A DNA stretch of 64,000 nt. Origin: Candidatus Omnitrophota bacterium (GTDB lineage: Bacteria; Omnitrophota; Gorgyraeia; DTHP01). The notes beneath the pieces are model-generated. The model saw only the letters and a list, made by a program, of their open reading frames with translations, made no database searches and was not told the origin of the DNA. Below are positions 1,088-63,863 of this stretch, piece by piece; the stretch's first letter is position 1, and each line of letters starts with the position of its first letter. The stretch is from contig JAMWCW010000003.1 in assembly GCA_023819145.1 (NCBI GenBank), positions 78,887 to 142,886 of the forward strand, given 5' to 3'. The position numbers and the translations under genes were made by a program.

Positions 1088-1116
1088 TTGAAATTAGCTT
1101 TTTTGTGTGTTATTAT
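1088..1116 (+). promoter_or_regulatory. Sigma70-like promoter upstream of clpC: TTGAAA-N17-TATTAT with a TGn extended -10
   Basis: TTGAAA at 1088-1093, 17-nt spacer, TGTTATTAT at 1108-1116; about 35 nt upstream of the clpC ATG, with an AGGAGG RBS at 1137-1142. Confidence 0.45.
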
Positions 1117-1149
1117 ATCTCTATAAAATAAAAAACAGGAGGATAAATT

Positions 1150-20516: not shown

Positions 20517-20677
20517 ATAAACAAGAAATGTTTCTTTACCTTTTAGGAAATACTTTCTGTTTTAGGGGAGATAAAGACCATTACAAAAAGTTGTAGATAT
20601 TATTTTAGAATTGATAGATAATATAAAAGGATATACTTTAGGTTTTGACCCCACTGTAAGTATCTGGAGGTATTTAG

Positions 20678-20977: not shown

Positions 20978-21111
20978 AGAAAAATAAGAAGAAATGGGAG
21001 AAGCCCAAGGTGAAAGAGATGAAGCTAAGGAGGGGAATAAGTCTTTACCTTTGCGACAAGTTTCCCCAGACGGCGCCCTACCATGATATTTGTGCTTCAG
21101 ACTTCTCATGA
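20974..21111 (+). CDS. Candidate RiPP precursor peptide, 45 aa (MKKNKKKWEKPKVKEMKLRRGISLYLCDKFPQTAPYHDICASDFS)
   Basis: Not in the six-frame track (<60 aa). AGGAGGTG RBS at 20962-20969 is 4 nt upstream; ATG is coupled to the PqqD stop; 22 nt before the radical-SAM gene. Lys-rich leader-like N-terminus, two Cys in the C-terminal half. Confidence 0.4.
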   Translation: MKKNKKKWEKPKVKEMKLRRGISLYLCDKFPQTAPYHDICASDFS

Positions 21112-21133
21112 TTTATACTAAAATTATATATGT

Positions 21134-39498: not shown

Positions 39499-40464
39499 AT
39501 GGCAGTAAAAGAGTTAGTTTTAGAGAAATTGGATGTGAATAAATTTATTGAAGAAAAGGTAAAAGAGATTAAAGAAACTGTAGGTAAAGAGATTGCTATA
39601 AACGCTTTATCAGGTGGGGTAGATTCTTCAGTAGTTACCATGCTTGGGTTCAAGGCCCTTGGAGAACGTCTTAAAACATATTTTATAGAGAATGGACTAA
39701 TGCGTGAGGGAGAGTCAGAGAAGGTAGTGTCTCTCTTTAAGCGCTTAGGGGTTCCAGTAGAGATTATAGACGCACGTAAAGAATTTTTTTCTGCTTTAAA
39801 GGGAATAACTGATCCTGAGGAGAAGCGCGAGGCCATTACCAGAGCATTCTATCGTGATGTTTTTGTAAAGTTGGTGAAAAAAACAGGAGCAAAGTTTCTT
39901 CTGCATGGAACAATTTATACGGATATTGAGGAAACGGTAGCGGGGATAAAAAGACAGCACAACATATTAGAACAATTGGGCATAGATACCGAAGAACAAT
40001 TTGGTTACAGAGTTATTGAACCGCTTTTACAATTGCGTAAACCTGCGGTGCGAGAAGTTGCTCGAGCTTTGGGTTTGCCGGAGGAAATATACAAAAGACC
40101 TCCTTTTCCCGGTCCTGCCCTCTCTGCGAGAGTGATTGGAGAAGTTACCCCCGAGAAAATTAATTTAGTAAGAAAGTCAACAAAAATTGTTGAGGAAGAA
40201 CTTTCTGAGGTAGGAGCTTTTCAGTATTTGGCAGTTTTACATGAAGATAAAGTTACGGGGATAAAAAACGGAAAAAGAGAGTTTGGTTACCAGATTGAAG
40301 TAAGGTGTTGGGATAGTAAAGATGCGGTAACCGCTTCACCTACGGAACTTTCTTATGAAATATTATTTAGGCTAGCAGAGAAAATTACTGAAGCGATTCC
40401 TCAAGTAGTAAGTGTAACTTATAATATAACTTCTAAACCTCCTTCTACCATAGAAGTGGTTTAG
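39499..40464 (+). CDS. GMP synthase PP-loop ATP-pyrophosphatase subunit (GuaA subunit B-like), stand-alone
   Basis: SGGVDSSV PP-loop, FIENGLMREGE, DPEEKREAI, LHGTIYTDIEE, FPGPALSARVIGEVT; these match the GuaA C-terminal domain. No glutamine amidotransferase subunit is adjacent. Confidence 0.65.
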   Translation: MAVKELVLEKLDVNKFIEEKVKEIKETVGKEIAINALSGGVDSSVVTMLGFKALGERLKTYFIENGLMREGESEKVVSLFKRLGVPVEIIDARKEFFSALKGITDPEEKREAITRAFYRDVFVKLVKKTGAKFLLHGTIYTDIEETVAGIKRQHNILEQLGIDTEEQFGYRVIEPLLQLRKPAVREVARALGLPEEIYKRPPFPGPALSARVIGEVTPEKINLVRKSTKIVEEELSEVGAFQYLAVLHEDKVTGIKNGKREFGYQIEVRCWDSKDAVTASPTELSYEILFRLAEKITEAIPQVVSVTYNITSKPPSTIEVV

Positions 40465-40471: not shown

Positions 40472-40675
40472 ATGAGCGATATTTTTAAGATTTTATTGAT
40501 TCTTTTTATGCTCCTTTTTCTTCTTCCGTCGTTTATTCGCTTAGCAGGTAATTTCTTTGAGCATTTGGTTTTCGGTAATATGACAAAGACTGAGTTCCTA
40601 GAACATTTTCGCGAGTTTAGTTATGGCCCTACTTTAGATTTCTATAAGGATTTATTCTATAAACTAGCCCACTAG
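40472..40675 (+). CDS. Small hypothetical membrane protein
   Basis: 67 aa, one TM helix, no motifs. Confidence 0.15.
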   Translation: MSDIFKILLILFMLLFLLPSFIRLAGNFFEHLVFGNMTKTEFLEHFREFSYGPTLDFYKDLFYKLAH

Positions 40676-40839
40676 AATTAGGCTTCTGTTTCCCAAATAT
40701 CAACGGAGCCTCTTTCAAGATTACCTTTCCTAAAGAATATCTTTCCTACCTTGACAAAACATTCGATATAAGCCATATCTTATATGTAAGAATGTCTGAG
40801 AATTTTTTCCGATTTAAAATGAATCTTTCGTGATTTAGG

Positions 40840-42909
40840 ATGTTCAAAAATTTATTATATATCATTATAATTATTGCTTATTCTGTTTTTTCTCCGTATA
40901 TATCTGAGGCAAGGCGGAGTAAAGATAGTAGAGCCTCTGCTATAACACCTTACGCATATGAAATCCGTTTTAATAAAGCAAACCATACCTATACCGTTAA
41001 TGGCGAAAAATACCCTTCTGTCCATGCAATCTTAAACCTTTTGGATAAGCCAGCACTTATCCCTTGGGCGATTAAAACGGTAATCACATATTTAGCAGAG
41101 AATAATATAACTCCCAATCCCAAAGATTCTTACCGCTATTATCAAGAGGCTTTGAGAGAAAGGGATAGAGCAGCGACAACCGGGACAGAGACGCACAGTT
41201 TTATAAGCCAAGCATTAAGTGGGCAGAAACATGCTTCCAGTTCACAAGACACCGCTCCTTATGTATCCTTAGCTGATAGAGGAGGTTTTCAGGCTGCATT
41301 TGCGAAATGGTTTAATGAGGCGCAACCAACCTTGGTTGCTTCAGAGGCAGTAGTAATATCACCTACCTATAAGTACGCAGGAACTATAGATGCGCTTTGT
41401 TTAATTCAAGGAGAATTGTGGCTAGTTGATTTTAAGACTTCCCCGAAAATTTACGATGACCATATTCTCCAGATAGCAGCCTATCGTCAGGCAATAGAAG
41501 AAATGGGTGGGTATTGGGTTTTATCAGGGGATAAGTATGTTTTTCATTCGTTGGAGGGCAAAAGAATTGCTCATACAGGTATAGTGCGTTTAGATAAAAG
41601 TAGTGGAGAAGTTGAATTTAAGAAATTAACAGAAGAAGAATACAGTGTGGCAGTAAATAAATTTCTGCTTTTGAGTAAGTATTATAATTTACATAATCCA
41701 GAAGATGTTTCCCGTTTTGGAGTAGTTGCGCCTTCGGGGTTAGAGGATAAGGCAACAGCAACTAATATTTTTGATAATCTGCTTGGCCTTGTCATCCAGG
41801 CAATGCGCGATTGTGGAACGACTGAAGAGGAAATTAGTAGATACATTGCCGAGGAACCTTATTTTTTCTTTCTTCCCGAAGTAAGAGCTATTTTACCCAA
41901 CGCCATTATGGCATTAAAGAATTACGGCATAGGAAGTTTTTCTGAACAGTGGAAAGTTTTTAAAGAGATTATTGATAATACCCGCCACAGAGATGTCAAA
42001 TATAGTGCTACATTTCTTGAAGTCCTCACAGACAGATTAATTAAAGGTGAGAAATTGGAAGATATTTTAAGGGATTTTAAAGATATGTGGCATTTTGGTT
42101 TTGTTTGGGCTACACGCTTTTCCAAAAAAAGCTGGGACAGTTTGATTACCAACAGGAAATATTTGGAAGAGAAGATACAGCAAGGTTTGCCTATTACTTA
42201 TCCCAACCCTCTGGCAATTCAAATTTATCCTGTAAGCGATTTCAATGGAGCTTTTAATAGTGATTTAGAAACCAGCGCTCTTATAGACCATGGGTATTTT
42301 GTGCTATATTACGAGGTGGATAATTTATTTGAGTTGTTAACAGCATTAGTAGATTCTACTGACCCTCAAAATGGTGTTAAGGCCTCTATAATTTGTTTGA
42401 ATGGTCATGGTAATCCCCAGGAAGTAGGAGAATATATTGCTGATTTATCTGATTTTAGGCTATTAGAAAAGTTTGGAGTAAAAGAATGCCTAGAAGAAGG
42501 AGGTTCTATAATTCTCTACTCCTGTGATACGGGTATTAACGGAGGTATAGTCAGTGCGCTATTTAATTTATTCCGACAGGCTAATTATATTTATGCTCCC
42601 ACAGGCAGACCCACTGGCTTAAAAATACAGTTTGATATTAATGGGGGGATAATCGAGGTTGAATATGAAGGTTCAGAGGTATATGATTTATTCAAGGAAC
42701 CAATTTACCAAAAGCCCACCGCCGAAGATATCCAAAGAGAGATTAGGTTATATTACGGTCTACTGGGGATTGACTTTAGAAAAATAAACATTCCGCAGTT
42801 GGTTTCCGAAATACAACGAGAGATTGAATTGCAATTTTATATGTTGGGATATATTATTTTTTCCGATTATCTCTCTCTCATCTATCAAACCTGCGATAAA
42901 TACAAATAA
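40840..42909 (+). CDS. Secreted multidomain protein: N-terminal PD-(D/E)XK (RecB/lambda-exonuclease/Cas4-like) nuclease domain plus C-terminal module with a His-Gly...Cys dyad
   Basis: Signal peptide MFKNLLYIIIIIAYSVFSPYISEA. Nuclease motifs GTETH, GTIDAL, LVDFKTS, QIAAYRQA (D...D-x-K...QxxxY). C-terminal module contains ICLNGHGNPQ ... ILYSCDTG. Confidence 0.5.
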   Translation: MFKNLLYIIIIIAYSVFSPYISEARRSKDSRASAITPYAYEIRFNKANHTYTVNGEKYPSVHAILNLLDKPALIPWAIKTVITYLAENNITPNPKDSYRYYQEALRERDRAATTGTETHSFISQALSGQKHASSSQDTAPYVSLADRGGFQAAFAKWFNEAQPTLVASEAVVISPTYKYAGTIDALCLIQGELWLVDFKTSPKIYDDHILQIAAYRQAIEEMGGYWVLSGDKYVFHSLEGKRIAHTGIVRLDKSSGEVEFKKLTEEEYSVAVNKFLLLSKYYNLHNPEDVSRFGVVAPSGLEDKATATNIFDNLLGLVIQAMRDCGTTEEEISRYIAEEPYFFFLPEVRAILPNAIMALKNYGIGSFSEQWKVFKEIIDNTRHRDVKYSATFLEVLTDRLIKGEKLEDILRDFKDMWHFGFVWATRFSKKSWDSLITNRKYLEEKIQQGLPITYPNPLAIQIYPVSDFNGAFNSDLETSALIDHGYFVLYYEVDNLFELLTALVDSTDPQNGVKASIICLNGHGNPQEVGEYIADLSDFRLLEKFGVKECLEEGGSIILYSCDTGINGGIVSALFNLFRQANYIYAPTGRPTGLKIQFDINGGIIEVEYEGSEVYDLFKEPIYQKPTAEDIQREIRLYYGLLGIDFRKINIPQLVSEIQREIELQFYMLGYIIFSDYLSLIYQTCDKYK

Positions 42910-43061
42910 AAAAACAAAATAATAGCTATTCTTTCCCGCCATAGATTGCCACACTTGACAGGTGTAGATTTGTCAGCCATATTTTATATAGAAGGTATAT
43001 TTATGGATTTATTTAAATAGTTGCGGGAATAAAGAGTTGGGATAAAAAGGATAATCATCAA

Positions 43062-44108
43062 ATGAACAATTTTAGGTTTAAAATCTTTAGACAGTTATGT
43101 TTGTATATTGCCTTGGGTATGTTCTGTGCAAGTCCTGTTTTTGCTCGTCGGACAAAATATGCAACAAGCGAGATGAAAAATGCGGTTTTTTTATCAGTAG
43201 AAGAAAGTAGACAATTGGGAGCAGAAATTATCAGGAGATTGTCTATAGGAGATACATATCAAGGTGAAATTTTGTATGGCAGAGATGATGGGGAGGGAAG
43301 GGTTTTTAATAACGAAAGCATTGATTTTGAATATGATTATCAAGGGAAATATGTACGTCTCGGTCCTCTTGTATTCTTAAATACAGAAAAAGAGGGTTTT
43401 TCTTGGAAGGAAATTTACGCCTGTTTAGGGGAAGAATTTTTGAAAAAATACGGCAGAAATATTATTTTTTATGTCTCTCCTGATAACCATTGGCAGTCAC
43501 GAATAGAAGTAATAGATTTTTTCTATAAGATTCCCCTTCCTTTTATAGATTTTACAACTCTGTCTGCTATTGTGGGCATGCTTAAGAACGGTGTTCAGGA
43601 TAAAGTGGTGGCAGATATCGGTTCTGGATTTGGGATTCTATCCTTAGTAGCTTTGCGTTTAGGAGCAAAAGAAATCTTTGCAGTAGAGGCTGAAGAATAT
43701 TGCTTGGAAAAAGCAGAGGAGATAATCCGCTTAAATGGTTATAGGTTAGGTATAGACGGGGAGGTGAAACTATTTCACCATACAGTTACTGAAGAAGATA
43801 TTTATCTAGGGTTACCACAAGAGGTTATAAATAGAGTAGAGCTAATTATATCCAATACAGGTCCATATTATTATCGACTACCTGCGTGGATTATAGAACA
43901 AGCGGCTATGTTTCCCTCTTGTCGTGCGATAATTTTGACCCATTATAAATCCTCCCGCCAAGATGGGGAGGAGGTTGGCGAAAGTGAAATCATCGCCCTC
44001 ATGAAGAGATTTGGTTTTGCTTATAATAAACATATTTTATTTTTTCCTATCGAGAAGGGAGCAATCCAAGGAGAAAGAGTAATAACTGTATTTTCAGGAT
44101 ATAGATAG
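43062..44108 (+). CDS. Signal-peptide-bearing class I SAM-dependent methyltransferase (PrmA-like)
   Basis: Signal peptide ...GMFCASPVFA; motif I VADIGSGFGILSLVALRLGAKEIFAVEAEE; 348 aa. Confidence 0.55.
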   Translation: MNNFRFKIFRQLCLYIALGMFCASPVFARRTKYATSEMKNAVFLSVEESRQLGAEIIRRLSIGDTYQGEILYGRDDGEGRVFNNESIDFEYDYQGKYVRLGPLVFLNTEKEGFSWKEIYACLGEEFLKKYGRNIIFYVSPDNHWQSRIEVIDFFYKIPLPFIDFTTLSAIVGMLKNGVQDKVVADIGSGFGILSLVALRLGAKEIFAVEAEEYCLEKAEEIIRLNGYRLGIDGEVKLFHHTVTEEDIYLGLPQEVINRVELIISNTGPYYYRLPAWIIEQAAMFPSCRAIILTHYKSSRQDGEEVGESEIIALMKRFGFAYNKHILFFPIEKGAIQGERVITVFSGYR

Positions 44109-44126
44109 AAGTAAACTTTTATTTAT

Positions 44127-45044
44127 ATGAAAGAAACGATAAAAATATTGGTTTTACTACTGGAAGTATTTCTTTTTACAGTTCGTTGTTGGGCATTGGT
44201 TGAATTAAATAGCAATTCTCAAGAAACTAATATCAGCGCAGTAATAGCGCCATATTCCGCCCCTCTTACAATTATAGGAGCACAAGATAAAGATAGCCAG
44301 GGTAGCAAAGAATGGCGGATTTATCTTGATGTTTCTAAATTTATCGAACTTTGGTCTCAAGAAGAGTATTTGCCGTTTGGTAAATATCAGCAATTAAAAT
44401 TGCTTACTACTTTAGAATTATATAAGGATAGAATTTCTCCCCGTTATAGTCAGGGAGAGATTAATGCGGTAGAAGCCTTTAGGAAGATATTAAAAGATGG
44501 CTATATAGATAGACAGACAATGGTAATTGTGGATATGGGAGGAGCGCATAGTGTAGCGGTGGCGATGGAGTTGGTTAAGCAATTGAGATTTCGCCCGATA
44601 ATTTTAGCGGATGTGGAACCATTGTGGCCAATGGGTTCGAATGTGCATGCAATTCAGGAATTGGCTACTTTACTTTATTTTTCTGCAGAGTTTGCAAAAA
44701 TTAAACCAACATTAACTCAAGATGCACCTCCTGTTTTTATTTTAGATTTACATCGTGGGGATAGACCTAGCATGCATAGGTCTTTAGATAATACTTATGT
44801 CATTGAGCCAGAGGAATTGCCTACGGTAGAGGAACTTTGGGCAAATGATGTTCATAAGGTGGTGATAATTAGAGAAGGGATGGGAACAAAAAGCAATGCG
44901 GGTTATCTAGATAATGTTGATTTCGGTCAACGGATTAAAGATTACGCTGTAAATGAAATAGAAGTTAAATTTTTTGAAATTAACCCTTGGCCTGATTTGG
45001 ATATTATTTTAGAAGAAATTAGAAGATTAAATGTATCTCCTTAA
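44127..45044 (+). CDS. Hypothetical exported protein
   Basis: Signal peptide (LLLEVFLFTVRCWA); 305 aa; no recognisable catalytic motif. Confidence 0.3.
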   Translation: MKETIKILVLLLEVFLFTVRCWALVELNSNSQETNISAVIAPYSAPLTIIGAQDKDSQGSKEWRIYLDVSKFIELWSQEEYLPFGKYQQLKLLTTLELYKDRISPRYSQGEINAVEAFRKILKDGYIDRQTMVIVDMGGAHSVAVAMELVKQLRFRPIILADVEPLWPMGSNVHAIQELATLLYFSAEFAKIKPTLTQDAPPVFILDLHRGDRPSMHRSLDNTYVIEPEELPTVEELWANDVHKVVIIREGMGTKSNAGYLDNVDFGQRIKDYAVNEIEVKFFEINPWPDLDIILEEIRRLNVSP

Positions 45045-45154
45045 AATCTATCCTTATTACTTGCAAACTAGTCTTTAGAATGTGAAAATATAGATAATTG
45101 GAGCATGTTGTATTAAAAAACAAGAGGTAAAGTTTCTCAAAATAATGGGCTAAA

Positions 45155-45568
45155 ATGCATGTAACTAAGAATGAGACTTTAAATATCGTAAGAAAAATAA
45201 GCGGATTTATATTAATTTTTATTTTATTTGAAATTTTTAAAATAGTAAATTGTTCCGAGTGGATTGAGTTTTCTTTACAGCGTAGAATTAAAGAACCCGG
45301 CGTTAGAAAAAGCTATACTCTTACTCTGGATAATCTAAAAATCGGTGAAAGAGCTATAATAGATTCTTTTGCTGAACCGGGGAGGGGTTATCGGTTGCGT
45401 TTAGCGAGCATGGGGTTGCGCGTAGGGTCTATGATAAAGGTTCTTTATAAAGAACCATTTAAAGGTCCGGTTTTAATAGAAGTAGATGGTAGCAGAATAG
45501 CCATTGGTAGGAATTTAGCAGAAAAGATAAATGTTATAGTAGAGCGTGATGCGAAGGCGCAGAAATGA
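45155..45568 (+). CDS. Membrane-anchored FeoA-like (SH3-like) domain protein
   Basis: N-terminal TM helix, then a FeoA-like pattern (LDNLKIGERAIIDSF...RLASMGLRVGSMIKVLYKEPFKGPVLIEVDGSRIAIGRNLAEKI); no feoB nearby. Confidence 0.4.
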   Translation: MHVTKNETLNIVRKISGFILIFILFEIFKIVNCSEWIEFSLQRRIKEPGVRKSYTLTLDNLKIGERAIIDSFAEPGRGYRLRLASMGLRVGSMIKVLYKEPFKGPVLIEVDGSRIAIGRNLAEKINVIVERDAKAQK

Positions 45569-45631
45569 TATAGAATCTAAAGGTATTTTATCTGCAGGAT
45601 GCTTTCTTTAACTTCCTTTTGTTAGCCCGCC

Positions 45632-45660
45632 TTGACGGTACATGTTTTTAATGCTATTCT
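45632..45660 (+). promoter_or_regulatory. Putative sigma70 promoter TTGACG-N17-TATTCT
   Basis: Read directly; 30 nt upstream of ORF 45694. Confidence 0.3.
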
Positions 45661-45693
45661 TTGATAAGGGGGGCTTTTATTTTTTAATGTAAG

Positions 45694-47073
45694 ATGAAAA
45701 AAACAGACTTGGTCAGGATGGTTTTTAGATTTAAACCTTTATATATTTTGGGTTTATTATCTTTGCAAACTTTATTACTTACCCCCCAGCGGGTTGGATT
45801 ATCTCAGATTACTCTTTTAATAAGAAGGGTTAAATTCAGCGAAGAGATAAGAGAAGGTTTATATCCTTTTCCTTTATCAGCTGAAGAATTACAGGAAGCT
45901 ATAGAAAACCTTTCTCCCGCGAGATGGTATTCCCGTACAGCGGTTATACCCCTGGGTAACGGCTTTGTGCAGGCAGTTAAGTTTCTCAAGAAAGGAGAAT
46001 CTATTACTGAACTAACACAGGAAGCAAGTATGATACAAGAGTTAAGAGATAAGGGTATAGAAATTTCTCCTTTGTTAGTCAAGGGTGAAGACGGTGAGTA
46101 TATTTTTGAATATAGAGGTAAATTTCTTTATGTTCCCGAGGAAGTGGATGCTTCGGGCAAATACATAAGCTATATTGTACCGCAGGAATACTTTATTTAT
46201 CCTGAGAATATCAACGACCCAGAGAAAATGATGGAGTGTGCATTGCTTTCTCTGAGCCAGTTTGCCAGATTGCTTAAAGCAGGTTATCTCCATCGGTCTC
46301 TTTCTCCGCTTACCCATGAGCAAAATAGTGGCAGAGAATGGTTATGGAACTATGTACCTATCGGCGGGATAGAAAATCTTCAGGATAGCCTTAAATATGC
46401 CAATATGGGATTGGCAGGACTTAGAGATTTTGCGCATGTTTCTGAGATTATTCCTGATGACTACCTTTATTTTTCCGTGGGGCAGGCGCTCTGTGAATGG
46501 GCAATAACCATTACCTATCATTCGCTTAAGAATGGATTTAGCCAAAGCCAGACATTTAATATTTTAGCCGCAGGTTTCGAGAGGTTTTTATCGGAGTGGG
46601 AATTGGATATTAAAATTGTGGAAGAAAATATTGATAAATTAGAGTCGTTTGTGAGCTTAGTTAGGCAGGAAATTAAAAACAATGCTCTATCTTCCCAAAA
46701 TGACGGTGGAAAACCTACCATAAATAATCTAGTTGGTTTTGTAAAGAAGATAATGGAGAAAATGAAGGAATCTTCCCTATATAGTCAATGGGAAACAGCA
46801 ACAGTGCGGGTGGAATATGTCTCCTTTGAAGAATTGGATAGAAATTTTGCTATAGAGCTAAGAGGAAGGATGGTTGTGCAGGAGGGAGAACTGAGATATG
46901 TAACTAATTGGCATAAGCGATGTTTGGAAATTTTTCATATTAGAGACGGTTCTTATCATCGGTACATTGCCCCTGGGAGCATTATAATGCCAAAAGAAAT
47001 ATTTAAGGAGGGAAACATTATTTATGTAGTGGATACAGAGCGAAAATGTATGGTAAAAATTACTCTACCTTAA
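45694..47073 (+). CDS. Hypothetical exported protein
   Basis: Hydrophobic N-terminus; 459 aa; no recognisable domain. Confidence 0.3.
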   Translation: MKKTDLVRMVFRFKPLYILGLLSLQTLLLTPQRVGLSQITLLIRRVKFSEEIREGLYPFPLSAEELQEAIENLSPARWYSRTAVIPLGNGFVQAVKFLKKGESITELTQEASMIQELRDKGIEISPLLVKGEDGEYIFEYRGKFLYVPEEVDASGKYISYIVPQEYFIYPENINDPEKMMECALLSLSQFARLLKAGYLHRSLSPLTHEQNSGREWLWNYVPIGGIENLQDSLKYANMGLAGLRDFAHVSEIIPDDYLYFSVGQALCEWAITITYHSLKNGFSQSQTFNILAAGFERFLSEWELDIKIVEENIDKLESFVSLVRQEIKNNALSSQNDGGKPTINNLVGFVKKIMEKMKESSLYSQWETATVRVEYVSFEELDRNFAIELRGRMVVQEGELRYVTNWHKRCLEIFHIRDGSYHRYIAPGSIIMPKEIFKEGNIIYVVDTERKCMVKITLP

Positions 47074-47138
47074 GAAGATTTGTTTACTTTATTTTCTAAA
47101 GGGAGTATAAATAAAAATAAGTTTTATAAGAGGTTTAA

Positions 47139-47756
47139 ATGAAAATTAGGCATTTTCGAAAAAAGACATTATTTACGGTTTATCTCTGTTTAACTTTCGT
47201 AATTTGCTTTTTTTCTTTTTCTAGCCACAGTTGCCCAGGAAATCTGGAGGTCTCTCTCGGAGCAAGGCGAATTAAAGACATAGTAGGAGCGTTTTCCCTC
47301 TCTCCTTCTATAAACGCCGTTCATAAACTAATTGTTTTAGATAAGCAAAAGATAGTGGTTGTCGATGGGGATACCCTGCACTATGATGATGAAAGAGTTA
47401 GGCTACTGGGAGTTGATTGTCCTGAACTTGCAACAGATACTTTTGGAGGGAGAGGACAAGAACCCTATGCCACAGAAGCCAAGGATTTTGTAATTAAGCG
47501 CTTACAGGAAGGGACAAGGATAGAATTAGTTTTAATTGAGGAGCAGGATAAATACGGAAGAAGTTTAGGACACATTTTTATTGATGGGGAATCCCTTTCT
47601 TTAGAATTAATAAGGAGGGGGTTAGGGTATGAAACCGTTTCCCGTTATGGAGATAATGGGTTTACAGAATTATCCGCTCAAATCTTAGAGGCGGCAAAGA
47701 AAATAACTCCTTCCTTTGAGAATCCTTCTGAATGGCGGAAGAAAAACAGAAGATAA
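47139..47756 (+). CDS. Secreted thermonuclease (staphylococcal nuclease/SNase family)
   Basis: Signal peptide; SNase motifs VVDGDTL...VRLLGVDCPE...GQEPYATEAKDF...YGRSLGHIF. Confidence 0.75.
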   Translation: MKIRHFRKKTLFTVYLCLTFVICFFSFSSHSCPGNLEVSLGARRIKDIVGAFSLSPSINAVHKLIVLDKQKIVVVDGDTLHYDDERVRLLGVDCPELATDTFGGRGQEPYATEAKDFVIKRLQEGTRIELVLIEEQDKYGRSLGHIFIDGESLSLELIRRGLGYETVSRYGDNGFTELSAQILEAAKKITPSFENPSEWRKKNRR

Positions 47757-47827
47757 GGCTCGGGGCTGTTAAAATTTTTGGTATAGGGGTTTATTTACCG
47801 GTTGAGTAAATTATTTGACAGCTTCTC

Positions 47828-47856
47828 TTGACAAAGTGGATTTTTGAGGATATAGT
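47828..47856 (+). promoter_or_regulatory. Sigma70 promoter TTGACA-N17-TATAGT (a second TTGACA lies 13 nt upstream at 47815)
   Basis: TTGACA 47828-47833, exact 17-nt spacer, TATAGT 47851-47856; about 50 nt upstream of ORF 47909. Confidence 0.5.
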
Positions 47857-47908
47857 TTATTTAGAAAGATGGTTCTTTAATTTTTTATTTTAAAATAGAT
47901 ATTAGGAT

Positions 47909-49246
47909 ATGAAACTGACAAACCAAAAACTAAAATATTTTGTTAAGCCATTCAAGATTCTGCTTATTTTTCTTATCCTTAATCTCTCTTTCGGATATTT
48001 ACACATTGCAGATATTTTTGTTATTTCTGTATTATCTCGTCGCATCAGAGATTTTGATTTCAGCTACATAAGAGGTAGCAAAGAGGCAAAGGTGGAATGG
48101 AAATATTTTGGTTTGACGCCTGCAATGTTTCAACGCATCTTGGACGCACTTATTGAGTCAGGTATTTGTTCAGTTTCAGGGAGGAAAGGGGTAATTTTTA
48201 TAGGAGGTACTTCCGCGGGAGGAAAATCTCCTGCGACAGATTTTATTACTGCAATGCTTAGAGGATACGGAATAAACGTAAAGTATATCTCTTTGGATAA
48301 TTATTATAAAGACCGTGAGAAGATGCCTACTTCCCCAGATGGCAATTTTGATTTTGATAGTGTTGAGGCTTTAGACATTGATAAATTTCAAAAACACTTG
48401 CATATACTTTTGACTACCTCAGAAGAGATAACGCCTCCTCACTTTGATATGAAGACCGGAAAAAGTAGCGATGGTAAAGATCCGATTCAGCTTCTGGAAG
48501 GAGAAGTTTTGATTGTAGAAGGAATTCATGCCTTGACTCCTCGGATGACTAATAAAGAGCGAGATGGGGATATTATTCCTCCAGAGGTGGTAAGGCTTAT
48601 GTTTTTTGTGAATGCTGAACGAGATACGCGTTTACCGCGGAGAATGGTGAGAGATAGTGAAGTGCGGGGGTATATTCCCGAAGCAACTATCTGGAATTGG
48701 GATAAGATAGTTGTGCCTGGAGAGGATAATCATATTATTCCCGGGAAAATTGAGGCTTTAAAATTGGCAGAAGAGCGAGGACAGAAGATAATTGAAATTG
48801 ATACAACTCTTCCTTTGGATAAGATAAGTGATATCCAGCCTTTGGGAGAGGTGTTTAGAGAAAGTTTAATTCAGGCCGGAGAAAGAATGGGGAAGTTAAT
48901 TCCGCTTTTAGAAAAAGAAGATTTTTATTCGCTTATCTCGCAGGTTCAAGGTAGTGAGTTAAGTAAAAGTTTGGTTGCTTTTCTAAAGATAAAAAGCCAT
49001 CAGGATAGGATTAGAGATTTATTGCGCAGTTTAGACAGTGAGTCAGAGAAAGGATTTATTAAGATAATAGGAGAAGGTACGCCAGATCAAATTTTGGAAT
49101 TTCTAAGCGAGACTTTGCTTCGTTATTCCACTAACACTTCCTTTAGGGAAGAGATGAACTTACTCCGGTTAGACCTTTTGGGTGCAATGCGCTATGTAGC
49201 AAGAAGAATAGATGAATTACGCAATAAATATTTTTCTATCCCTTAA
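47909..49246 (+). CDS. Membrane-anchored uridine kinase/phosphoribulokinase-family P-loop kinase with a ~250-aa C-terminal extension
   Basis: N-terminal TM helix; GGTSAGGKS P-loop; ISLDNYYKD and LIVEGIHALTP motifs match the Udk family. Confidence 0.55.
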   Translation: MKLTNQKLKYFVKPFKILLIFLILNLSFGYLHIADIFVISVLSRRIRDFDFSYIRGSKEAKVEWKYFGLTPAMFQRILDALIESGICSVSGRKGVIFIGGTSAGGKSPATDFITAMLRGYGINVKYISLDNYYKDREKMPTSPDGNFDFDSVEALDIDKFQKHLHILLTTSEEITPPHFDMKTGKSSDGKDPIQLLEGEVLIVEGIHALTPRMTNKERDGDIIPPEVVRLMFFVNAERDTRLPRRMVRDSEVRGYIPEATIWNWDKIVVPGEDNHIIPGKIEALKLAEERGQKIIEIDTTLPLDKISDIQPLGEVFRESLIQAGERMGKLIPLLEKEDFYSLISQVQGSELSKSLVAFLKIKSHQDRIRDLLRSLDSESEKGFIKIIGEGTPDQILEFLSETLLRYSTNTSFREEMNLLRLDLLGAMRYVARRIDELRNKYFSIP

Positions 49247-49306
49247 CAGCTTTTTAGTTTCGATTTTTGTATAAATAAAATTATTTCTTAAATATACTCT
49301 ACAGAT

Positions 49307-49939
49307 ATGAAGCTAAAAGTATTAAAAGAGATTATTGGGTATTTAGAATTAGTTATTTTATTTTCGTTATTTCTTAACAGGTCTAATCTTCTTAGAGATG
49401 GCGCATTTATTGGGATAAGAAGGGTAAAAGAGGTTTTACAGACGCAAGTAAGGAATAGAAGCAGAGAGCTTGTTGGTTTATTTAAAACAGAAAATGGGCT
49501 TGGGTATAAAATCTATAGAGAAGAAATTCTGCCTCTTATGTTAGCGGGTCCTTCACAAGCAATACCCTTTACAGTGGAAATGAGAGCGATGATAGCAGAG
49601 GTAAATAGTGATGCAGATAGTGGTGAAGAAATGGTGGCGGGAAGGATATCTTTATATATCCCTCAGATACCCTATATAAATATAGCCGAAATTGAGGTTA
49701 ATATAGCTTCCCCTTATAAAGACTCAGGAATTTTAAATAAACTGTTTAGTTTAATTTTAAAAGAAGCACGTAATCGCGGATTTAGTCATTTAAGAATGGC
49801 CACAACATCTTTAAGTTCCGGAGAGATATTTATTTTTCTTAAACAAGAGGAAGCACACGGTATTATTTCCCATCTTACCTTCTATCCGCTACAAGATGGT
49901 CTGGTTTTTATTGGTTTTGATATTGCCAATCGGGAATAA
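49307..49939 (+). CDS. Hypothetical protein (possible GNAT-like acetyltransferase fold)
   Basis: Weak GNAT-like C-terminal pattern (ILNKLFSLILKEARNRGFSHLRM); low confidence. Confidence 0.25.
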   Translation: MKLKVLKEIIGYLELVILFSLFLNRSNLLRDGAFIGIRRVKEVLQTQVRNRSRELVGLFKTENGLGYKIYREEILPLMLAGPSQAIPFTVEMRAMIAEVNSDADSGEEMVAGRISLYIPQIPYINIAEIEVNIASPYKDSGILNKLFSLILKEARNRGFSHLRMATTSLSSGEIFIFLKQEEAHGIISHLTFYPLQDGLVFIGFDIANRE

Positions 49940-50013
49940 ACCATAATTTAACCCCTTTCTCAAAAAACATTTGTAAATCCCTTGCTCTTTTGTTATACTT
50001 TAAGGGAAATTAA

Positions 50014-50706
50014 GTGGGGTTATTCATTTTATCTTTATTCTTAAATTTCACAATGATTATTTCTCAACTAAAACCGTGGAAGGAAATAAGTTCTTATTTT
50101 AAAAAAGGTGAAAAATTATTTATTATAGGGTGCGGTGAATGTTCTACCACTTGCAAATCAGGGGGAGAATTTGAGGTTTTAGCGATTAAAGAAAAATTAG
50201 AAAAAGAAGGATATAGAGTAGCAGGATACTCCATTCCTAAATCTCCTTGTATTTCTGCACAGATAAAGATTGAATTGGCAAAACACAGCAAGGAAATTGC
50301 GGAAGCAGATTCTTTTTTGATTATGGCCTGTGGTTTAGGGGTGCAATCGGTTAAAATAAATCTGCGCCAGGATAAAATTATCCATCCCGCAACCAATACT
50401 TTGTTTATGGGGGCAGTCGATTCTACGGGTTTAGGATTTTTTGAATACTGTTCTGCCTGCGGGGATTGTATTCTAGAATTTACCGCAGGAATTTGTCCGA
50501 TTACCCGTTGTGCTAAGGGATTATTAAATGGTCCCTGCGGTGGACAAAATAAGGGGAAATGTGAAGCAGATAGGAACAAAGACTGCGCTTGGATTTTAAT
50601 CTATGAAGAACTAAAAAAAGCGAATAAATTGGACCTTTTGAAAAAGATAAAACCACCCCGTAATTATGGAGGAATGATTCGTCCGCAGGTGTTAGTATTG
50701 AAATAA
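50014..50706 (+). CDS. MTHFR C-terminal-like (MetV-type) Cys-rich metal-binding protein
   Basis: [15 protein letters not shown] and the characteristic [12 protein letters not shown] motif; 230 aa; no metF adjacent. Confidence 0.55.
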
Positions 50707-56375: not shown

Positions 56376-57308
56376 ATGAAGGATTTTAAAAAGATTATAC
56401 GTCCGCTGCTGGGGTTATTTATTTTAGTTTTAATCTTCTTCAGCATTGTTTCTTTAGTAACGATTTTTCCATCAAAAGGGTTCGCTAAGCGATGGGAATT
56501 TAAAAAGATATATACAAAAGCATTAGAGGAGGAAAAAAGAGGAAGTCTCGGCAAAGCGATAGAATATTTAGAGAAGATAGATGATAGTTTTGGAAAGGAT
56601 AAAAAAATTTATAATGCTTGGTTTAAACTCGCTTTGCTTTATGAGAAGGCTAATCGCTTCTTAGAAGCAAAAAAGCTTTTAGAAAAGATAATCTTAGAAT
56701 CGGGGACAGGAGACATCATTAAGAAAGCCCAAGAAGAATTGGGTAAGCTTAATATAAAGATTATTTTTTCTCCTCTTGTCACCGAAAACGCTTTTCTTTA
56801 TGAAGTAAAAGAAGGGGATTCACTAATTAAAATTGCTCAACGGTTTAATACTACCGTAGAACTTATTAGAAAGGCAAATAATCTTAAAGAAGATGCCTTT
56901 CTTCGCCCAGGGATGAAACTAAAAATAACTAAAGAAAAATTTTCTGTTTTGGTAGATAAATCTCAGAATACCCTTACCCTTAAGGCAGATGATAGAGTGG
57001 TTAAAGTATATACCGTTTCCACCGGTCTAAATAATATCACTCCTGTGGGTACCTTTAAAATTATTAACAAAATTACCAAGCCGGTATGGTATAAAGATGG
57101 TAAAGTTATTTCCCCGGATGATCCGGAAAATATTTTAGGAAGTCACTGGTTAGGAATTTCTGAACGCGGATACGGCATACATGGAACAACCCAACCCGAG
57201 ACAATTGGCAAGCATGTTACTCAAGGTTGCGTAAGGATGTATAATCATGATGTAGAAGAACTCTATATTATTTTGCCTATCGGAACGGAAGTAACCATTA
57301 TGGAATAA
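56376..57308 (+). CDS. LysM-domain L,D-transpeptidase (YkuD family)
   Basis: N-terminal TM anchor, LysM (YEVKEGDSLIKIAQRFNTTVELIRKANNL), catalytic HGT...GCVRM motif. Confidence 0.8.
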   Translation: MKDFKKIIRPLLGLFILVLIFFSIVSLVTIFPSKGFAKRWEFKKIYTKALEEEKRGSLGKAIEYLEKIDDSFGKDKKIYNAWFKLALLYEKANRFLEAKKLLEKIILESGTGDIIKKAQEELGKLNIKIIFSPLVTENAFLYEVKEGDSLIKIAQRFNTTVELIRKANNLKEDAFLRPGMKLKITKEKFSVLVDKSQNTLTLKADDRVVKVYTVSTGLNNITPVGTFKIINKITKPVWYKDGKVISPDDPENILGSHWLGISERGYGIHGTTQPETIGKHVTQGCVRMYNHDVEELYIILPIGTEVTIME

Positions 57309-60091: not shown

Positions 60092-60099
60092 GATTTATA

Positions 60100-60182
60100 T
60101 GCTGGAGGTGGGAGTTGAACCCACACGGGTGTAACCCCACCGGTTTTTGAGACCGGCGTGTATGCCATTCCACCACTCCAGC
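60100..60182 (-). tRNA. tRNA-Leu (anticodon CAA), class II with long variable arm
   Basis: Reverse complement GCTGGAG...CTCCAGCA folds into a cloverleaf. 7-bp acceptor stem; anticodon stem CCGGT/ACCGG with loop CTCAAAA; long variable arm; GTTCAACTC T-loop. Confidence 0.75.
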
Positions 60183-60221
60183 ATTAATTCTTATACCCAT
60201 AAACTCTACTACCACTTTTTA

Positions 60222-60683: not shown

Positions 60684-61667
60684 TTAATCTTTTTCTTTCT
60701 TTTTCTCCTCAGTCGGTTTACCAATTCGCTCCCGCATCTCCGTATCTGCTTGGATGTTTCGTAGCGAATAATAATCCATTACTCCCAGTTTTCCCTCTTT
60801 AAAGGCATAAGCAATTGCTTTAGGAATTTCTGCCTCTGCTTCTACCACCTTTGCTCGCATCTCTTGGACGCGTGCTTTCATTTCCTGCTCTTGGGCTACG
60901 GCAAGAGCCCTTCTTGTCTCCGCTTTTGCCTGGGCAACTTTTAAATCTGCTTCTGCCTGGTCTGCCTGAAGCTGAGCGCCGATATTTTTCCCTACATCAA
61001 CATCCGCAATATCAATGGAAAGAATCTCAAAAGCAGTGCCCGAATCCAACCCTTTTGCCAAAACAGTTTTAGAAATTAAATCAGGGTTCTCTAAAACATT
61101 TTTATAACTCTCGGCAGAACCGATGGTAGTAACAATTCCTTCCCCAACACGGGCGATAATCGTTTCCTCAGTTGCTCCTCCTACCAGCCGTTCGATATTG
61201 GCACGCACCGTTACGCGTGCTTTTGCCTTTAATTCTATGCCATCTTTGGCGACTGCTGCCAGAACTCCTTCTTTAGGGGCATCAATTACTTTGGGATTTA
61301 CTGAAGTTTTCACTGCATCCAAAACATCCCGTCCCGCAAGGTCGATAGCACAGGCCCGTTCAAATTTTAAGTCGAGATTTGCTTTATCTGCAGAGATTAA
61401 TGCTTTAACGACACGAATTACGTCTCCGCCTGCAAGATAATGCGCTTCTAATCCATCCAATTTTATAGAAAGCCCAGCTTTATGGAGCATAATTAGACCG
61501 GGAACAATAATCCGCGGGTCAACATTGCGTAGGCGCATGCCGATTAGACTGAAGATAGAAATTCTTACTCCTGCGGCAATAGCCGCAATCCAGAGTCGCA
61601 CGGGAATGAAATAGCCAAAGAGAAAAAGCGTTGCTACAATAACTATAGCGATGACAAATACAGGCAT
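60684..61667 (-). CDS. floA: Flotillin-like protein FloA (SPFH/band-7, YqfA family)
   Basis: Near-colinear match by eye to the FloA family pattern (GVRISIF..GMRLR...AHYLAGG...[10 protein letters not shown]...[11 protein letters not shown]...[19 protein letters not shown]...QADQAEAD). Confidence 0.85.
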
Positions 61668-61707
61668 TTTGCACCTCCATTCTTGGTTAAATGTTAACTG
61701 GTTTTAA

Positions 61708-62187
61708 CTAAATTTGTTTGACGATGACACGATTGCCTTCTGTTTTTATGACTAAAACTTGTTTATTCTGTTCAATGAATACCCCTCCTTCAGAGAGTGC
61801 ATCGATTCTTTTCCCTTCAATTAAGCATATTCCAACAGGGCGAAGAGGTGAGATGGTTTTCCCTATTTTGTTGACTAAACTACTTAAATCGCCTTTAAAG
61901 GGTTTAAAACCTGCTTCTTTCGTTTCCTGATGTTCCAAACGGAGTTTTTTCCAGATTTTGGTTTTGGGAAAGAGCCTCCATGATAAAATAATAAGCATCA
62001 AACTGCCTAAAGAAACAATCAATCCTAATCCAAGGTTTAATTTTGTCCAAGCGAAATAGGAAGCAAGGATTAAAGAGGCAATTCCACTCATTCCCAGTAT
62101 GCCAAAACCGGGAATAATTAAAATCTCAATGGCTAAAAGCACATAGCCTAATAAAATAAGCGTTAAAACCAATAACCAATTAGGCAT
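61708..62187 (-). CDS. NfeD-family membrane protein (short form, OB-fold C-terminus)
   Basis: Three TM helices plus a C-terminal beta-barrel (GKTISPLRPVGICLIEGKRIDALSEG); paired with floA. Confidence 0.7.
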   Translation of the reverse strand: MPNWLLVLTLILLGYVLLAIEILIIPGFGILGMSGIASLILASYFAWTKLNLGLGLIVSLGSLMLIILSWRLFPKTKIWKKLRLEHQETKEAGFKPFKGDLSSLVNKIGKTISPLRPVGICLIEGKRIDALSEGGVFIEQNKQVLVIKTEGNRVIVKQI

Positions 62188-62221
62188 TATCTTATTCCTT
62201 GATTTATTTGTAAATCAGGAA

Positions 62222-63739
62222 TTAAATCGATTTAACTACTACTTTTGCTCCTTCGATACTTATGACTTTTACCTCTTTATCCTTTTCAATAAATTCACCT
62301 TCGCTGATTACATCCAGGACTTTTCCCGAGAATTCTGCCTTACCCGATGGTCTAAGATAGGTAATAGTTTTACCTATTTTACCGATTAAATTTTCTTTAG
62401 TCAAATCAATAGTACTGTAACCTTCTTCTTTAGATTCTTTCTCTTGTAAAATTATTCTTTTCCAGAGTCCGGTGCGAGGAAGAAAATTTATGGACAACAG
62501 TAACACTACCAAAGTAGCAAAGAAAGAGTAAACAACAACCTGAAATGCTTGAAGTAGTTCTCTGTGCGGGGTATGCAAGGGGTGTTTAATTAAAGCTAAG
62601 AAAATGCTAACCAAAAGCAGTATTCCTCCTGAGATTCCTGCGAAGCCAAATCCGGGAAAGACAAAAATTTCTAAAAAGATTAGAATCAGTGCAAGGATGA
62701 AAAATATTATCTCCGTCCAGTTTGCTAGACCTACAAGATAATGTCCCCAGAAAAATAGTGCTAAAGAAATTACCCCCAAGGTTCCTGCTATCCCCCAGCC
62801 AGGGATTTTTATCTCAAAGATAATTCCCAAGAAACCCAACGTTAAAAGTAAGGAACTCACAATTGGATGGGTCAAGAAGCGCACCAGATTTTCCGACCAG
62901 CTGGGTTTAGGTTCAAACATTTCTTTTTCTTTTAGATTTAAAAACGCAAGGAGTTCTTCGCGCTGAGAAATAATTTTTTTTACCATCCCCAATTCTTTTG
63001 CCTCTTCGGCAGTGAGATTGAGAAGTTTACCTTTTTCTGTCACGGTTTTTATTATTTTTATTTTTTCTTCTCCCAGTTCACTTTTTTTCTCTGCAACTTC
63101 CTCAGGGTAAAGGATAAAATTTTCTTCACCGATTCTTACCAATTTTAATTCTAAATCTTTATCCACAAAAGCCTCTGCCAATTTAGGACTGTGTTTATTT
63201 GCTTCTGCGGTAGCTTTAAATTTCGCTCTTAAAGCGGAAATGGTTTTTTCGTCTTTTACTTCTTCTTCATTACCCATGCCTATGGCACGGGGTTCTGCGG
63301 AGCCAATACTTGAACCAGGAGTCATGTAAATTTCTTCACAGGCAAGAGAAATCAATGCCCCTGCAGACCAGGCTTCACCTAACACAAATGCCTTTACGGG
63401 AATGGGCTTTAGCTCTTCCAAGGATTTAACAATTTCCCCAGCAGCATCCACTCTTCCCCCAAAAGTATCAATCTCTACTATTACTGCAGAGGCGTGTTCT
63501 TCCTTTGCTTCTCTGGTTACGCGTTTAACAAATGCCGAAAGCCCCAAGTCAATTACCCCTTTTATGGGGACGACATAAACCGCACTTTTTTCCTGACTAT
63601 ATCCGGAATTTAATAACCCCCCTAACCCGTAACCAAGAACCAGTAACCAAAGAAATAATTTGGGAAATCTCTTAAAAATCTGTGCAATCATAGTTATTAA
63701 TATACCATTCAAATCTGGATGTGTCAATTGTATTGACAT
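62222..63739 (-). CDS. NfeD-family membrane-bound ClpP-class serine protease (YqeZ-like long form)
   Basis: ClpP-like domain (VVPIKGVID...EIDTFGGRVDAA...GEAWSAGALISLAC), multi-TM region, C-terminal OB domain. The true start is probably the internal M (MIAQIF...) at 63691. Confidence 0.8.
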   Translation of the reverse strand: MSIQLTHPDLNGILITMIAQIFKRFPKLFLWLLVLGYGLGGLLNSGYSQEKSAVYVVPIKGVIDLGLSAFVKRVTREAKEEHASAVIVEIDTFGGRVDAAGEIVKSLEELKPIPVKAFVLGEAWSAGALISLACEEIYMTPGSSIGSAEPRAIGMGNEEEVKDEKTISALRAKFKATAEANKHSPKLAEAFVDKDLELKLVRIGEENFILYPEEVAEKKSELGEEKIKIIKTVTEKGKLLNLTAEEAKELGMVKKIISQREELLAFLNLKEKEMFEPKPSWSENLVRFLTHPIVSSLLLTLGFLGIIFEIKIPGWGIAGTLGVISLALFFWGHYLVGLANWTEIIFFILALILIFLEIFVFPGFGFAGISGGILLLVSIFLALIKHPLHTPHRELLQAFQVVVYSFFATLVVLLLSINFLPRTGLWKRIILQEKESKEEGYSTIDLTKENLIGKIGKTITYLRPSGKAEFSGKVLDVISEGEFIEKDKEVKVISIEGAKVVVKSI

Positions 63740-63787: not shown

Positions 63788-63863
63788 GGGGCCGTAGCTC
63801 AGTTGGGAGAGCAACAGGCTGGCAGTCTGTGGGTCAGGGGTTCAAATCCCCTCGGCTCCACCA
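63788..63863 (+). tRNA. tRNA-Ala (anticodon GGC), CCA encoded
   Basis: GGGGCCGTAGCTCAGTTGGGAGAGC... cloverleaf, G3:U70 alanine identity pair, anticodon loop CTGGCAG, T-loop GGTTCAAATCC, 3' CCA. Confidence 0.85.

Follow-up and report, generated by a model that had tools for sequence, protein, structure and literature searches.

What unites a run of genes whose products include nucleases, a methyltransferase and a kinase, and all begin with a hydrophobic segment? We address this question for an island of eight plus-strand open reading frames (ORFs), with products of 137-689 amino acids (aa), at 40680-49940 of the window, the whole 64,000-nucleotide stretch of contig JAMWCW010000003.1 from a Candidatus Omnitrophota metagenome-assembled genome (MAG). 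Our analyses identify as the feature uniting these genes an Arg-Arg motif placed after the signal peptide, which had not been spotted in the sequence-only reading of this DNA. From the three MAG lineages examined, we infer that the motif acts as a secondary signal for protein sorting and sets apart a cargo island of variable content. No motif of this kind is mentioned in the searched Omnitrophota literature, and the tag is apparently undescribed so far.

Omnitrophota are widespread, uncultured and ultra-small bacteria, thought to be predators or parasites, and to our knowledge nothing beyond speculation on giant proteins has been put forward on how they attack. A predatory or host-dependent lifestyle has been proposed for the phylum (PMC10066038; bioRxiv 10.1101/2023.11.21.568195), and predator RNA has been reported inside dead prey cells (PMC13153191).

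An Arg-Arg motif marks the island products

A hydrophobic N-terminal segment is found in all eight island products, in agreement with the earlier claim that nearly all of them have an exported-type N-terminus. Just past this segment, at residues 25-44, seven of the eight bear Arg-Arg-x-(Lys/Arg), hereafter the RR motif or tag:

40912..40926, plus strand: RRSKD, residues 25-29 of the 689-aa protein
43146..43160, plus strand: RRTKY, residues 29-33 of the 348-aa protein
45281..45295, plus strand: RRIKE, residues 43-47 of the 137-aa protein
45823..45837, plus strand: RRVKF, residues 44-48 of the 459-aa protein
47265..47279, plus strand: RRIKD, residues 43-47 of the 205-aa protein
48038..48052, plus strand: RRIRD, residues 44-48 of the 445-aa protein
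49418..49432, plus strand: RRVKE, residues 38-42 of the 210-aa protein

Under a fixed criterion (a hydrophobic 12-mer, then RR.[KRH] within 38 residues, at positions 16-76), the tag was scored in these seven island ORFs and in none of the 53 other ORFs of the window, although the N-termini of 15 among them resemble signal peptides. Among 698 ORFs from 80 other unrelated or related loci, 169 of them with signal-peptide-like N-termini, it was scored once. The island proportion of 7/8 against 1/184 signal-peptide-like ORFs elsewhere is highly significant (Fisher p=3.7e-11; composition-based binomial 6e-11).

The pair is always Arg-Arg (17 of 17 leaders), never KK, KR or RK, although Lys is more frequent than Arg (8.6 % vs 5.5 %); a requirement for charge alone would give Arg-Arg in the seven window leaders with P~2e-6. 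The RR of the seven tags is written in seven different codon pairs, and therefore selection acts on the protein; a DNA- or RNA-level element at the motif was ruled out on this same ground. The consensus over the 17 leaders is (A/I/T)-R-R-(V/I)-(K/R)-(D/E), with an acidic residue at +5 in nine of them. Apart from this motif the window leaders are unalignable, the initial Met and RR being the sole invariant columns, and BLAST returned no matches of these leaders to one another, nor does any Pfam or NCBIfam model cover them. The exclusive use of Arg, together with the survival of RR in leaders that otherwise drift freely, points to specific recognition of the pair.

Anatomy of the leaders

The n-region of the leaders is positively charged, and their hydrophobic core spans 12-20 residues. 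A net N-flank charge of +1 to +6 and an uncharged stretch of 12-27 residues, found in each of the 15 leaders analysed, correspond to the n/h pattern of substrates of Sec and signal peptidase I, and the charge of the n-region is usually above that of the C-flank, so that an N-in/C-out orientation is predicted. This n/h/c anatomy and charge balance suggest export through Sec. The residue right before RR (-1) is Ala in 9/17 leaders and Ala, Ser or Thr in 12/17; that at -3 is Ala, Leu, Ser, Val or Ile in 13/17. The tag sits 0-18 residues beyond the hydrophobic core, ahead of the folded body. Short-form leaders (RR at 23-30) have RR directly after an A-x-A-type site; long-form leaders (RR at 36-44) have a polar turn and a hydrophobic stretch of 7-10 residues between core and RR, which places RR 12-18 residues past the core, so that cleavage may fall elsewhere. 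In the AlphaFold model of the 459-aa protein (predicted TM score, pTM, 0.63), residues 1-55, including RR, have a predicted local distance difference test score (pLDDT) below 50 and lie ahead of the folded body, with a helix modelled at residues 14-27.

Elsewhere in the window (56376-57308), a genuine periplasmic protein, a LysM + YkuD L,D-transpeptidase, has a signal peptide that ends in GFA and is followed by KRWE; basic residues after a signal peptide thus seem to be tolerated in this organism.

The tag on unrelated bodies and in other Omnitrophota genomes

The tag recurs beyond the island. A paralog elsewhere in the same MAG (P0002) starts MKVFGLKIKWLVILVLIIFSWQPAFARRVHI and has the tag as ...PAFA-RRVH. 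A second island, not syntenic with that of the window, lies between ilvC and leuA in the Omnitrophota MAG GCA_964555025.1 (locus L001, with a strain variant, L003; GC 0.45). All eight of its leader-bearing genes carry the tag (RRIRD, RRARG twice, RRSKV, RRVRD, RRVKT, RRMKE and RRVKD), and the only body common to the two islands is the SidJ-like protein described below. Three genes of L001 share one 45-aa leader, 75-80 % identical, on bodies that are unrelated to one another (456 aa, 303 aa and, in a tetratricopeptide repeat (TPR) protein, 378 aa). The cargo of L001 consists mostly of orphans, besides this TPR protein and one with an XRE-type helix-turn-helix (HTH) domain; no nuclease or kinase occurs among the products of the L001/L003 island. 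The two strain variants differ at a small indel hotspot within the island, L001 (6079-6706) having a minus-strand PIN toxin/antitoxin pair and L003 (6191-6922) a different 243-aa ORF.

In a third MAG (GCA_050252475.1, locus L086), a shorter island has the same right neighbour as that of the window, in the order 689-aa ortholog, FeoA, staphylococcal nuclease (SNase) and MetV-like gene. Its FeoA ortholog retains RR (FRRIRS). The leaders of orthologs are 16-32 % identical as against 55-67 % for their bodies, and RR is still kept in the FeoA and SidJ-like orthologs.

The island cargo

The eight island genes encode the following proteins, the catalytic motifs being intact across the cargo of cytoplasmic-type families:

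40840..42909, plus strand: 689-aa protein; leader (residues 1-24), RRSKD, PD-(D/E)XK/Cas4-like nuclease domain (residues ~167-241), helical middle, C-terminal H523-G...C562 region
43062..44108, plus strand: 348-aa protein; leader, RRTKY, PrmA-like S-adenosylmethionine (SAM) methyltransferase (PF06325, E=3e-8; motif I DIGSGFG at residue 185)
44127..45044, plus strand: 305-aa orphan; hydrophobic N-terminus, no RR motif
45155..45568, plus strand: 137-aa protein; leader, RRIKE, FeoA (SH3-like) domain (PF04023, E=3e-21)
45694..47073, plus strand: 459-aa protein; leader, RRVKF, SidJ-like kinase fold (residues ~58-370), C-terminal beta-propeller blades
47139..47756, plus strand: 205-aa protein; leader, RRIKD, SNase domain (PF00565, E=6e-14)
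47909..49246, plus strand: 445-aa protein; leader, RRIRD, PRK/uridine-kinase P-loop with Walker A GTSAGGKS at residues 100-107, C-terminal extension
49307..49939, plus strand: 210-aa protein; leader, RRVKE, possibly GNAT-like

Identical public protein entries bear the locus tags NC818_02705, NC818_02725 and NC818_02735. The domain calls made earlier for the methyltransferase, FeoA, SNase and PRK/uridine-kinase proteins are borne out by Pfam matches. The SNase fits its family in score (PF00565, 52.8 bits vs a cutoff of 21) and in its intact DGDT and RLLGVDCPE motifs. By its sequence, the 445-aa protein is a member of the PRK/uridine kinase family (PF00485, 45.7 bits, E=9e-12, vs a cutoff of 22); its match to the udk model NF004018 (79 bits, E=3e-22) lies under the cutoff of 180, and it is thus not a demonstrated uridine kinase. 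Its nearest relatives are leaderless cytoplasmic TGS-Udk fusions (33-38 % identity).

The earlier PD-(D/E)XK call for the 689-aa protein is consistent with our results but weakly so: the Cas4 model TIGR00372 gives 24.7 bits (E=1.8e-5) against a cutoff of 65, with D184 and VDFK (197-200) present. The protein is 72 % identical to its ortholog P0015. In its C-terminal region, two hydrophobic strands leading into His-Gly and Cys, IICLNGHG (H523) and IILYSC (C562), 39 residues apart, recall at motif level only the dyad of clan-CD cysteine proteases (caspase, gingipain or metacaspase type). They are kept in P0015, and the pattern is rare, its regular expression matching 2/759 background ORFs; L001 has no counterpart of this region. 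Searches with PDB profiles returned only a pentatricopeptide repeat-like helical hairpin (residues ~365-420), and a single-sequence AlphaFold model (pLDDT 37) was unusable, so that a fold search with it is meaningless.

One of the two proteins earlier described as exported proteins of unknown type, the 459-aa protein, can be assigned. A SidJ-like kinase fold is supported for the 459-aa protein in three ways, from sequence and from its predicted structure. It matches NF033874 (SidJ-related pseudokinase) over model positions 127-345 with 61.8 bits (E=5e-17), below the curated cutoff of 300; SidJ gives the best matches of its family profile against PDB (E=0.009); and in a Foldseek search of PDB with its model the top 14 matches are SidJ chains (probability 1.00, E=7e-5 to 1e-3, TMq ~0.4), followed by other kinases. 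It contains the beta3 Lys (AVKF) and a DFA motif. The 210-aa protein is possibly, on weak matches, a GNAT acetyltransferase (ArsN1 E=0.012; top PDB match an acetyltransferase, E=0.55; RNRGFS at residue 155).

Homology searches with the kinase, the 689-aa and the SidJ-like proteins returned one to four relatives each, and these cargo proteins are therefore near-orphans. A genome-contig scan gave no matches with the kinase and three loci only with the SidJ-like alignment, and a viral-contig scan gave no matches.

SidJ-like domains occur in two further settings. P0004, a protein of 745 aa (L002/L005 5331-7568), has a C-terminal SidJ-like domain and an Arg-Arg inside the n-region (TIIRRIVATILLV...AAFA), that is, in a classical or Tat-like position. 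Its leader is unlike those of the island, so a different lineage exports a SidJ-like domain with a different kind of leader. In another Omnitrophota MAG (SPRUCE; JBEKHW010000001.1, locus L004 1-21704), a single open frame spans the whole locus and encodes a protein of at least 7,234 aa, with GlnD-type nucleotidyltransferase, SidJ-like, DUF6923, sigma-70 region 4, RNA polymerase alpha C-terminal domain and XRE-HTH (HTH_3) modules. The island cargo seems to be drawn from the module pool of giant Omnitrophota proteins.

Spacing, promoter-like elements and variability of the island

The limits of the island and its two neighbours are as follows:

40472..40675, plus strand: left flank, membrane ORF of 67 aa, directly after the GuaA-B-like gene (39499-40464)
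40680..50052, plus strand: island, of variable content, flanked by the 67-aa ORF and the MetV-like gene
50053..50706, plus strand: right flank, MetV-like gene (DUF5981; PF12225, E=8e-33), outside the island

The spacer ahead of the first island gene measures 164 bp and those between and after the island genes, in order, 152, 18, 110, 125, 65, 152, 60 and 74 bp, all of them AT-rich (GC 0.11-0.34). The island median of 110 bp, as against 23 bp for the 47 other same-strand gaps of the window (Mann-Whitney p=0.003), agrees with the earlier description of eight genes in a loosely packed stretch; the range of 60-165 bp then given applies to all spacers but the 18-bp gap between the methyltransferase and 305-aa genes. 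The true start of the MetV-like gene is probably 50053, at the position matching the Met with which its L086 ortholog begins, and not the GTG of the longest ORF at 50014, which lengthens the right-hand spacer to 113 bp.

Four promoter-like elements were located in the spacers:

40751..40786, plus strand: P1, TTGACA-N17-CATATC, a consensus match only
42955..42983, plus strand: P2, TTGACA-N17-CATATT, opening window-specific block 1
45632..45660, plus strand: P3, TTGACG-N17-TATTCT with TG, opening window-specific block 2
47828..47856, plus strand: P4, TTGACA-N17-TATAGT (11/12), opening window-specific block 3

The promoter positions proposed earlier agree with these within 1 nt, except that the hexamer at 45632 reads TTGACG; TTGACA itself is found at 40751, 42955, 47815 and 47828, four of the 13 plus-strand TTGACA hexamers of the window thus falling in island spacers. 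A generic promoter scan of the island gave no significant excess (39 matches vs 30.4 +/- 4.8 in shuffles). Because an element of the form CTTGAC(A/G)-N17-TAxxxT precedes only the genes starting at 40840, 43062, 45694 and 47909, four transcription units are more likely than eight. The 305-aa gene, 18 bp past the methyltransferase gene, is probably its co-translated partner.

The content of the island varies between relatives. L086 is colinear only with window positions 41492-42923, 45314-45550, 47329-47756 and 50051-50555, which leaves three blocks specific to the window (methyltransferase and 305-aa protein; SidJ-like protein; kinase and 210-aa protein), each of them opening with a promoter-like spacer. 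L006 (72-91 % aa identity), the closest relative found, keeps the order of window 30.0-40.68 kb. The 67-aa ORF is part of this colinear stretch; it is 80 % identical, also stands right after GuaA-B and is therefore a conserved flank outside the island. The DNA homology to L006 breaks off at window ~40679, which is exactly the left edge of the island (40680), and is taken up again at window ~1082: L006 runs straight from the 67-aa ORF into the clpC block, which is at 1.1-9.9 kb in the window. The island therefore stands at a synteny breakpoint, with a left edge at ~40680, and is absent from the corresponding junction of L006. Synteny thus sustains the sequence-only reading in its structural part, that of a distinct and loosely packed island of exported proteins.

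The compositional signature proposed as a further check is hardly seen: the island equals the rest of the window in GC (0.364 vs 0.365) and in GC at third codon positions (GC3; 0.307 vs 0.309), and it shows no more than a modest rise in tetranucleotide distance (0.018 vs 0.0138 +/- 0.0014). The classical marks of a mobile island were not found either (no tRNA within 10 kb, no integrase and no convincing flanking repeats), nor were convincing cassette recombination sites or repeats in the spacers. A recent horizontal transfer was ruled out by the identical GC and GC3 and the lack of tRNA or integrase.

Several other features of the window were recorded. At 3-3600, a McsB-type protein arginine kinase (PF00217, E=8e-68) is encoded directly upstream of clpC; in L006, clpC comes right after GuaA-B and the 67-aa ORF, without mcsB. 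In other bacteria, proteins of the CPBP/Rce1-like family act in the processing of leader or sorting peptides; one such intramembrane protease, with a hydrophobic N-terminus, is encoded at 23667-24698 (PF02517, E=3e-21), 17 kb from the island. At 19874-21955, 804 bp without any ORF of at least 90 aa are followed by a PqqD-family ORF (20678-20977) and a neighbouring radical-SAM enzyme that is seemingly split (21134-21538 and 21653-21955), which may represent a decayed maturase locus for a ribosomally synthesized and post-translationally modified peptide, or a sequencing frameshift. On the minus strand, a pair of a FloA flotillin-like protein and an NfeD membrane protease (60684-63739) lies between tRNA-Leu (60099-60183) and tRNA-Ala (63788-63863), and the GC skew is reversed near 60 kb, at the point where the genes switch orientation.

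A proposed sorting route and its rivals

We lean, though with considerable reserve, towards the explanation that the island encodes Sec-exported cargo with a lineage-specific secondary sorting or processing tag, plausibly the effectors of a predatory or parasitic bacterium. The N-terminal signal peptide would take the cargo out through Sec, and after translocation a dedicated factor would read the twin-arginine tag. This factor could be a receptor for sorting or a processing protease specific for Arg, and through it the cargo would leave the periplasm for the cell surface, for vesicles or for an attached prey or host cell. The cargo genes would be gained and lost as small promoter-bearing blocks. 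As to the destination, the cargo needs ATP (nucleoside kinase, SidJ-like fold), SAM (methyltransferase) or DNA/RNA (PD-(D/E)XK protein, SNase and, in the L001 island, the HTH protein), and a set of effectors acting in the cytoplasm of another cell is for this reason the most coherent reading; these cofactor needs and the lifestyle proposed for the phylum would both point there.

Several observations weigh against this explanation. The 305-aa island protein has no RR motif, and the SNase ortholog of L086 has RWTRG in place of RRIKD; these two cases indicate that the tag is not obligatory. No protease or receptor recognising RR was identified, and a leader-profile search of 1.84 billion representative proteins had no power: apart from one unrelated internal repeat, it returned nothing but the sequences on which the profile had been trained. 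As for a reader within the island, a clan-CD protease was not detected in the 689-aa protein by Pfam (E<=10) or PDB profiles, and its H-G/C pattern was defined only after it had been seen. The leaders may share descent, which would make the counts less independent than the statistics assume; the coverage is of three MAG lineages and two independent islands; and signal peptides were judged from n/h/c anatomy only. Furthermore, basic residues right after a signal peptide impair Sec export in E. coli, so that RR could serve retention or topology instead.

This last point is developed in the main rival, under which the products are ordinary exported or anchored proteins, the basic cluster serves topology or retention in a generic way, and it recurs through common descent of duplicated leaders. 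Three of the L001 leaders are clear paralogs, basic residues also follow the signal peptide of the periplasmic L,D-transpeptidase, RR is gone from one ortholog whose gene shows no obvious decay, and no RR-recognising machinery was found. We regard this rival as a serious contender, if a rather unlikely one, since Arg-Arg in 17/17 leaders of a Lys-rich proteome is unexpected for a role of charge alone, unalignable window leaders with no mutual BLAST matches have kept RR with varied codons, and the 15 other window ORFs with signal-peptide-like N-termini lack the motif.

A scavenging of nucleic acids outside the cell or in the periplasm, in which secreted nucleases would degrade DNA or RNA and the kinase would capture nucleosides, had been suggested earlier as the organising principle of the island, and an SNase with intact residues, a PD-(D/E)XK domain and a uridine-kinase-like protein, all with export-type N-termini, do occur together in it. 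However, this accounts for at most three of the eight genes, the methyltransferase, 305-aa, FeoA, SidJ-like and GNAT-like proteins having no salvage role, and a kinase with an intact Walker A motif needs ATP and therefore should not work outside the cytoplasm. The L086 island has nucleases without the kinase, the L001 island with the same tag has neither, and no nucleoside transporter or phosphatase is present, so that we give up scavenging as the organising principle and hold it to be decidedly improbable.

The modular leader, variable bodies, nucleases and gene turnover between relatives also recall an interbacterial polymorphic-toxin cluster, with a conserved N-terminal delivery module, variable toxic C-termini and immunity proteins nearby. 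This is very unlikely here: the spacers of 18-164 bp are too short for small immunity ORFs beside the cargo genes, no delivery domain of Rhs, PAAR, LXG or CdiA type was found in the island products with Pfam and NCBIfam, the leader is merely of signal-peptide size, and FeoA, TPR, HTH and kinase bodies are not typical toxins. Even less probable is a surface-exposed anti-phage defence or nuclease-methylase conflict system, also raised in the sequence-only reading. PADLOC gives domain-level matches to Cas4, the mad2 methyltransferase and SNc+LTD but finds no complete known system, these being generic catalytic domains; defence nucleases and methylases work on intracellular DNA, whereas the island proteins bear export leaders; and L086 does not keep nuclease and methyltransferase together. 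The idea is thus not upheld.

An invariant Arg-Arg pair near the N-terminus is also the mark of twin-arginine translocation (Tat) substrates. The Tat signal peptide (S/T-R-R-x-F-L-K) resembles the island leaders in that its Arg-Arg, within an N-terminal targeting sequence, is not replaceable by Lys. In Tat, however, RR precedes the hydrophobic core, while in 17/17 leaders here it comes after it, followed by polar or charged sequence (RRSKDSRASA, RRIKEPGVRK) and no further h-region, and the Pfam TAT_signal model gives no match. Unusual Tat substrates are thus the least probable of the readings considered, and a Tat signal was ruled out by the reversed order of RR and core.

Likeness to known sorting signals and implications

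Short Arg motifs after a Sec-type signal peptide are well known in eukaryotic parasites, as PEXEL/TEXEL (RxLxE/Q/D in Plasmodium, RRLxx in Toxoplasma) and as RxLR in oomycetes, where they mark large, fast-evolving and clustered repertoires of unrelated effectors. The enzymes processing PEXEL/TEXEL, plasmepsin V and ASP5, are aspartyl proteases of the ER or Golgi. The island tag is similarly placed a few to a few tens of residues past the signal peptide, and 8/17 island-type leaders fit R-x-(I/V/M)-x-(D/E); these systems are eukaryotic, however, whereas here, in a bacterium, the second residue is always Arg and position 3 is never Leu, so that the analogy would be one of logic and not of membership. 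Residues right past the signal peptide also determine secondary sorting or processing in particular lineages under the 'Q-rule' and the lipoprotein export signal of Bacteroidetes and under the Lol +2 rule, but these rules cover most substrates of a pathway in a phylum, while the island tag marks a clustered subset only.

Among bacteria, the effectors of phytoplasmas (SVM-type signal sequence, PMU islands) and of 'Ca. Liberibacter', organisms with reduced genomes and an obligate association with hosts, are exported by an N-terminal Sec signal peptide alone (PMC12108763, PMC6888338). They share with the island products a conserved leader on variable mature parts and clustering in variable regions, but their leaders lack a twin-arginine motif past the h-region. 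Phytoplasmas have no outer membrane and Sec export therefore suffices, whereas Omnitrophota are thought to be diderm, so that a step beyond Sec would be needed. By analogy, the closest counterparts of the island tag are thus, in logic, PEXEL/TEXEL, RxLR and the phytoplasma leaders and, in chemistry, the twin-arginine pair of Tat. In the cargo, the kinase-like domain of the 459-aa protein matches that of Legionella SidJ, a calmodulin-dependent glutamylase with a kinase-like fold (PDB 6K4K, 6OQQ, 7MIR), but at 13-15 % identity and with a TM of 0.4 over the query, without the calmodulin-binding IQ region and the N- and C-terminal domains of SidJ, and with a Sec leader instead of a Dot/Icm signal.

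A bolder version of the proposal, which we consider unlikely, would have RR-x-(K/R)-(D/E) as a bacterial counterpart of PEXEL/RxLR, an export element close to the signal peptide that would define which proteins are effectors of predatory or parasitic Omnitrophota, read by an Arg-specific processing enzyme and licensing ATP-, SAM- and DNA-dependent enzymes into prey. The reader could possibly be the clan-CD-like C-terminal region of the 689-aa protein, for which its sequence motifs make it a speculative candidate.

If the sorting explanation is true, ordinary cytoplasmic enzymes, such as a nucleoside kinase, a methyltransferase or an HTH protein, would have been recruited as exported cargo by gaining a leader, and the effector repertoire of these bacteria would be predictable from genome sequence alone. 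Phylogenetic profiling of the tag would then help to trace the machinery that sorts or processes the cargo. Bacteria would gain a new kind of secondary sorting signal at the N-terminus, whose logic has converged with that of the motifs by which eukaryotic parasites target their hosts.

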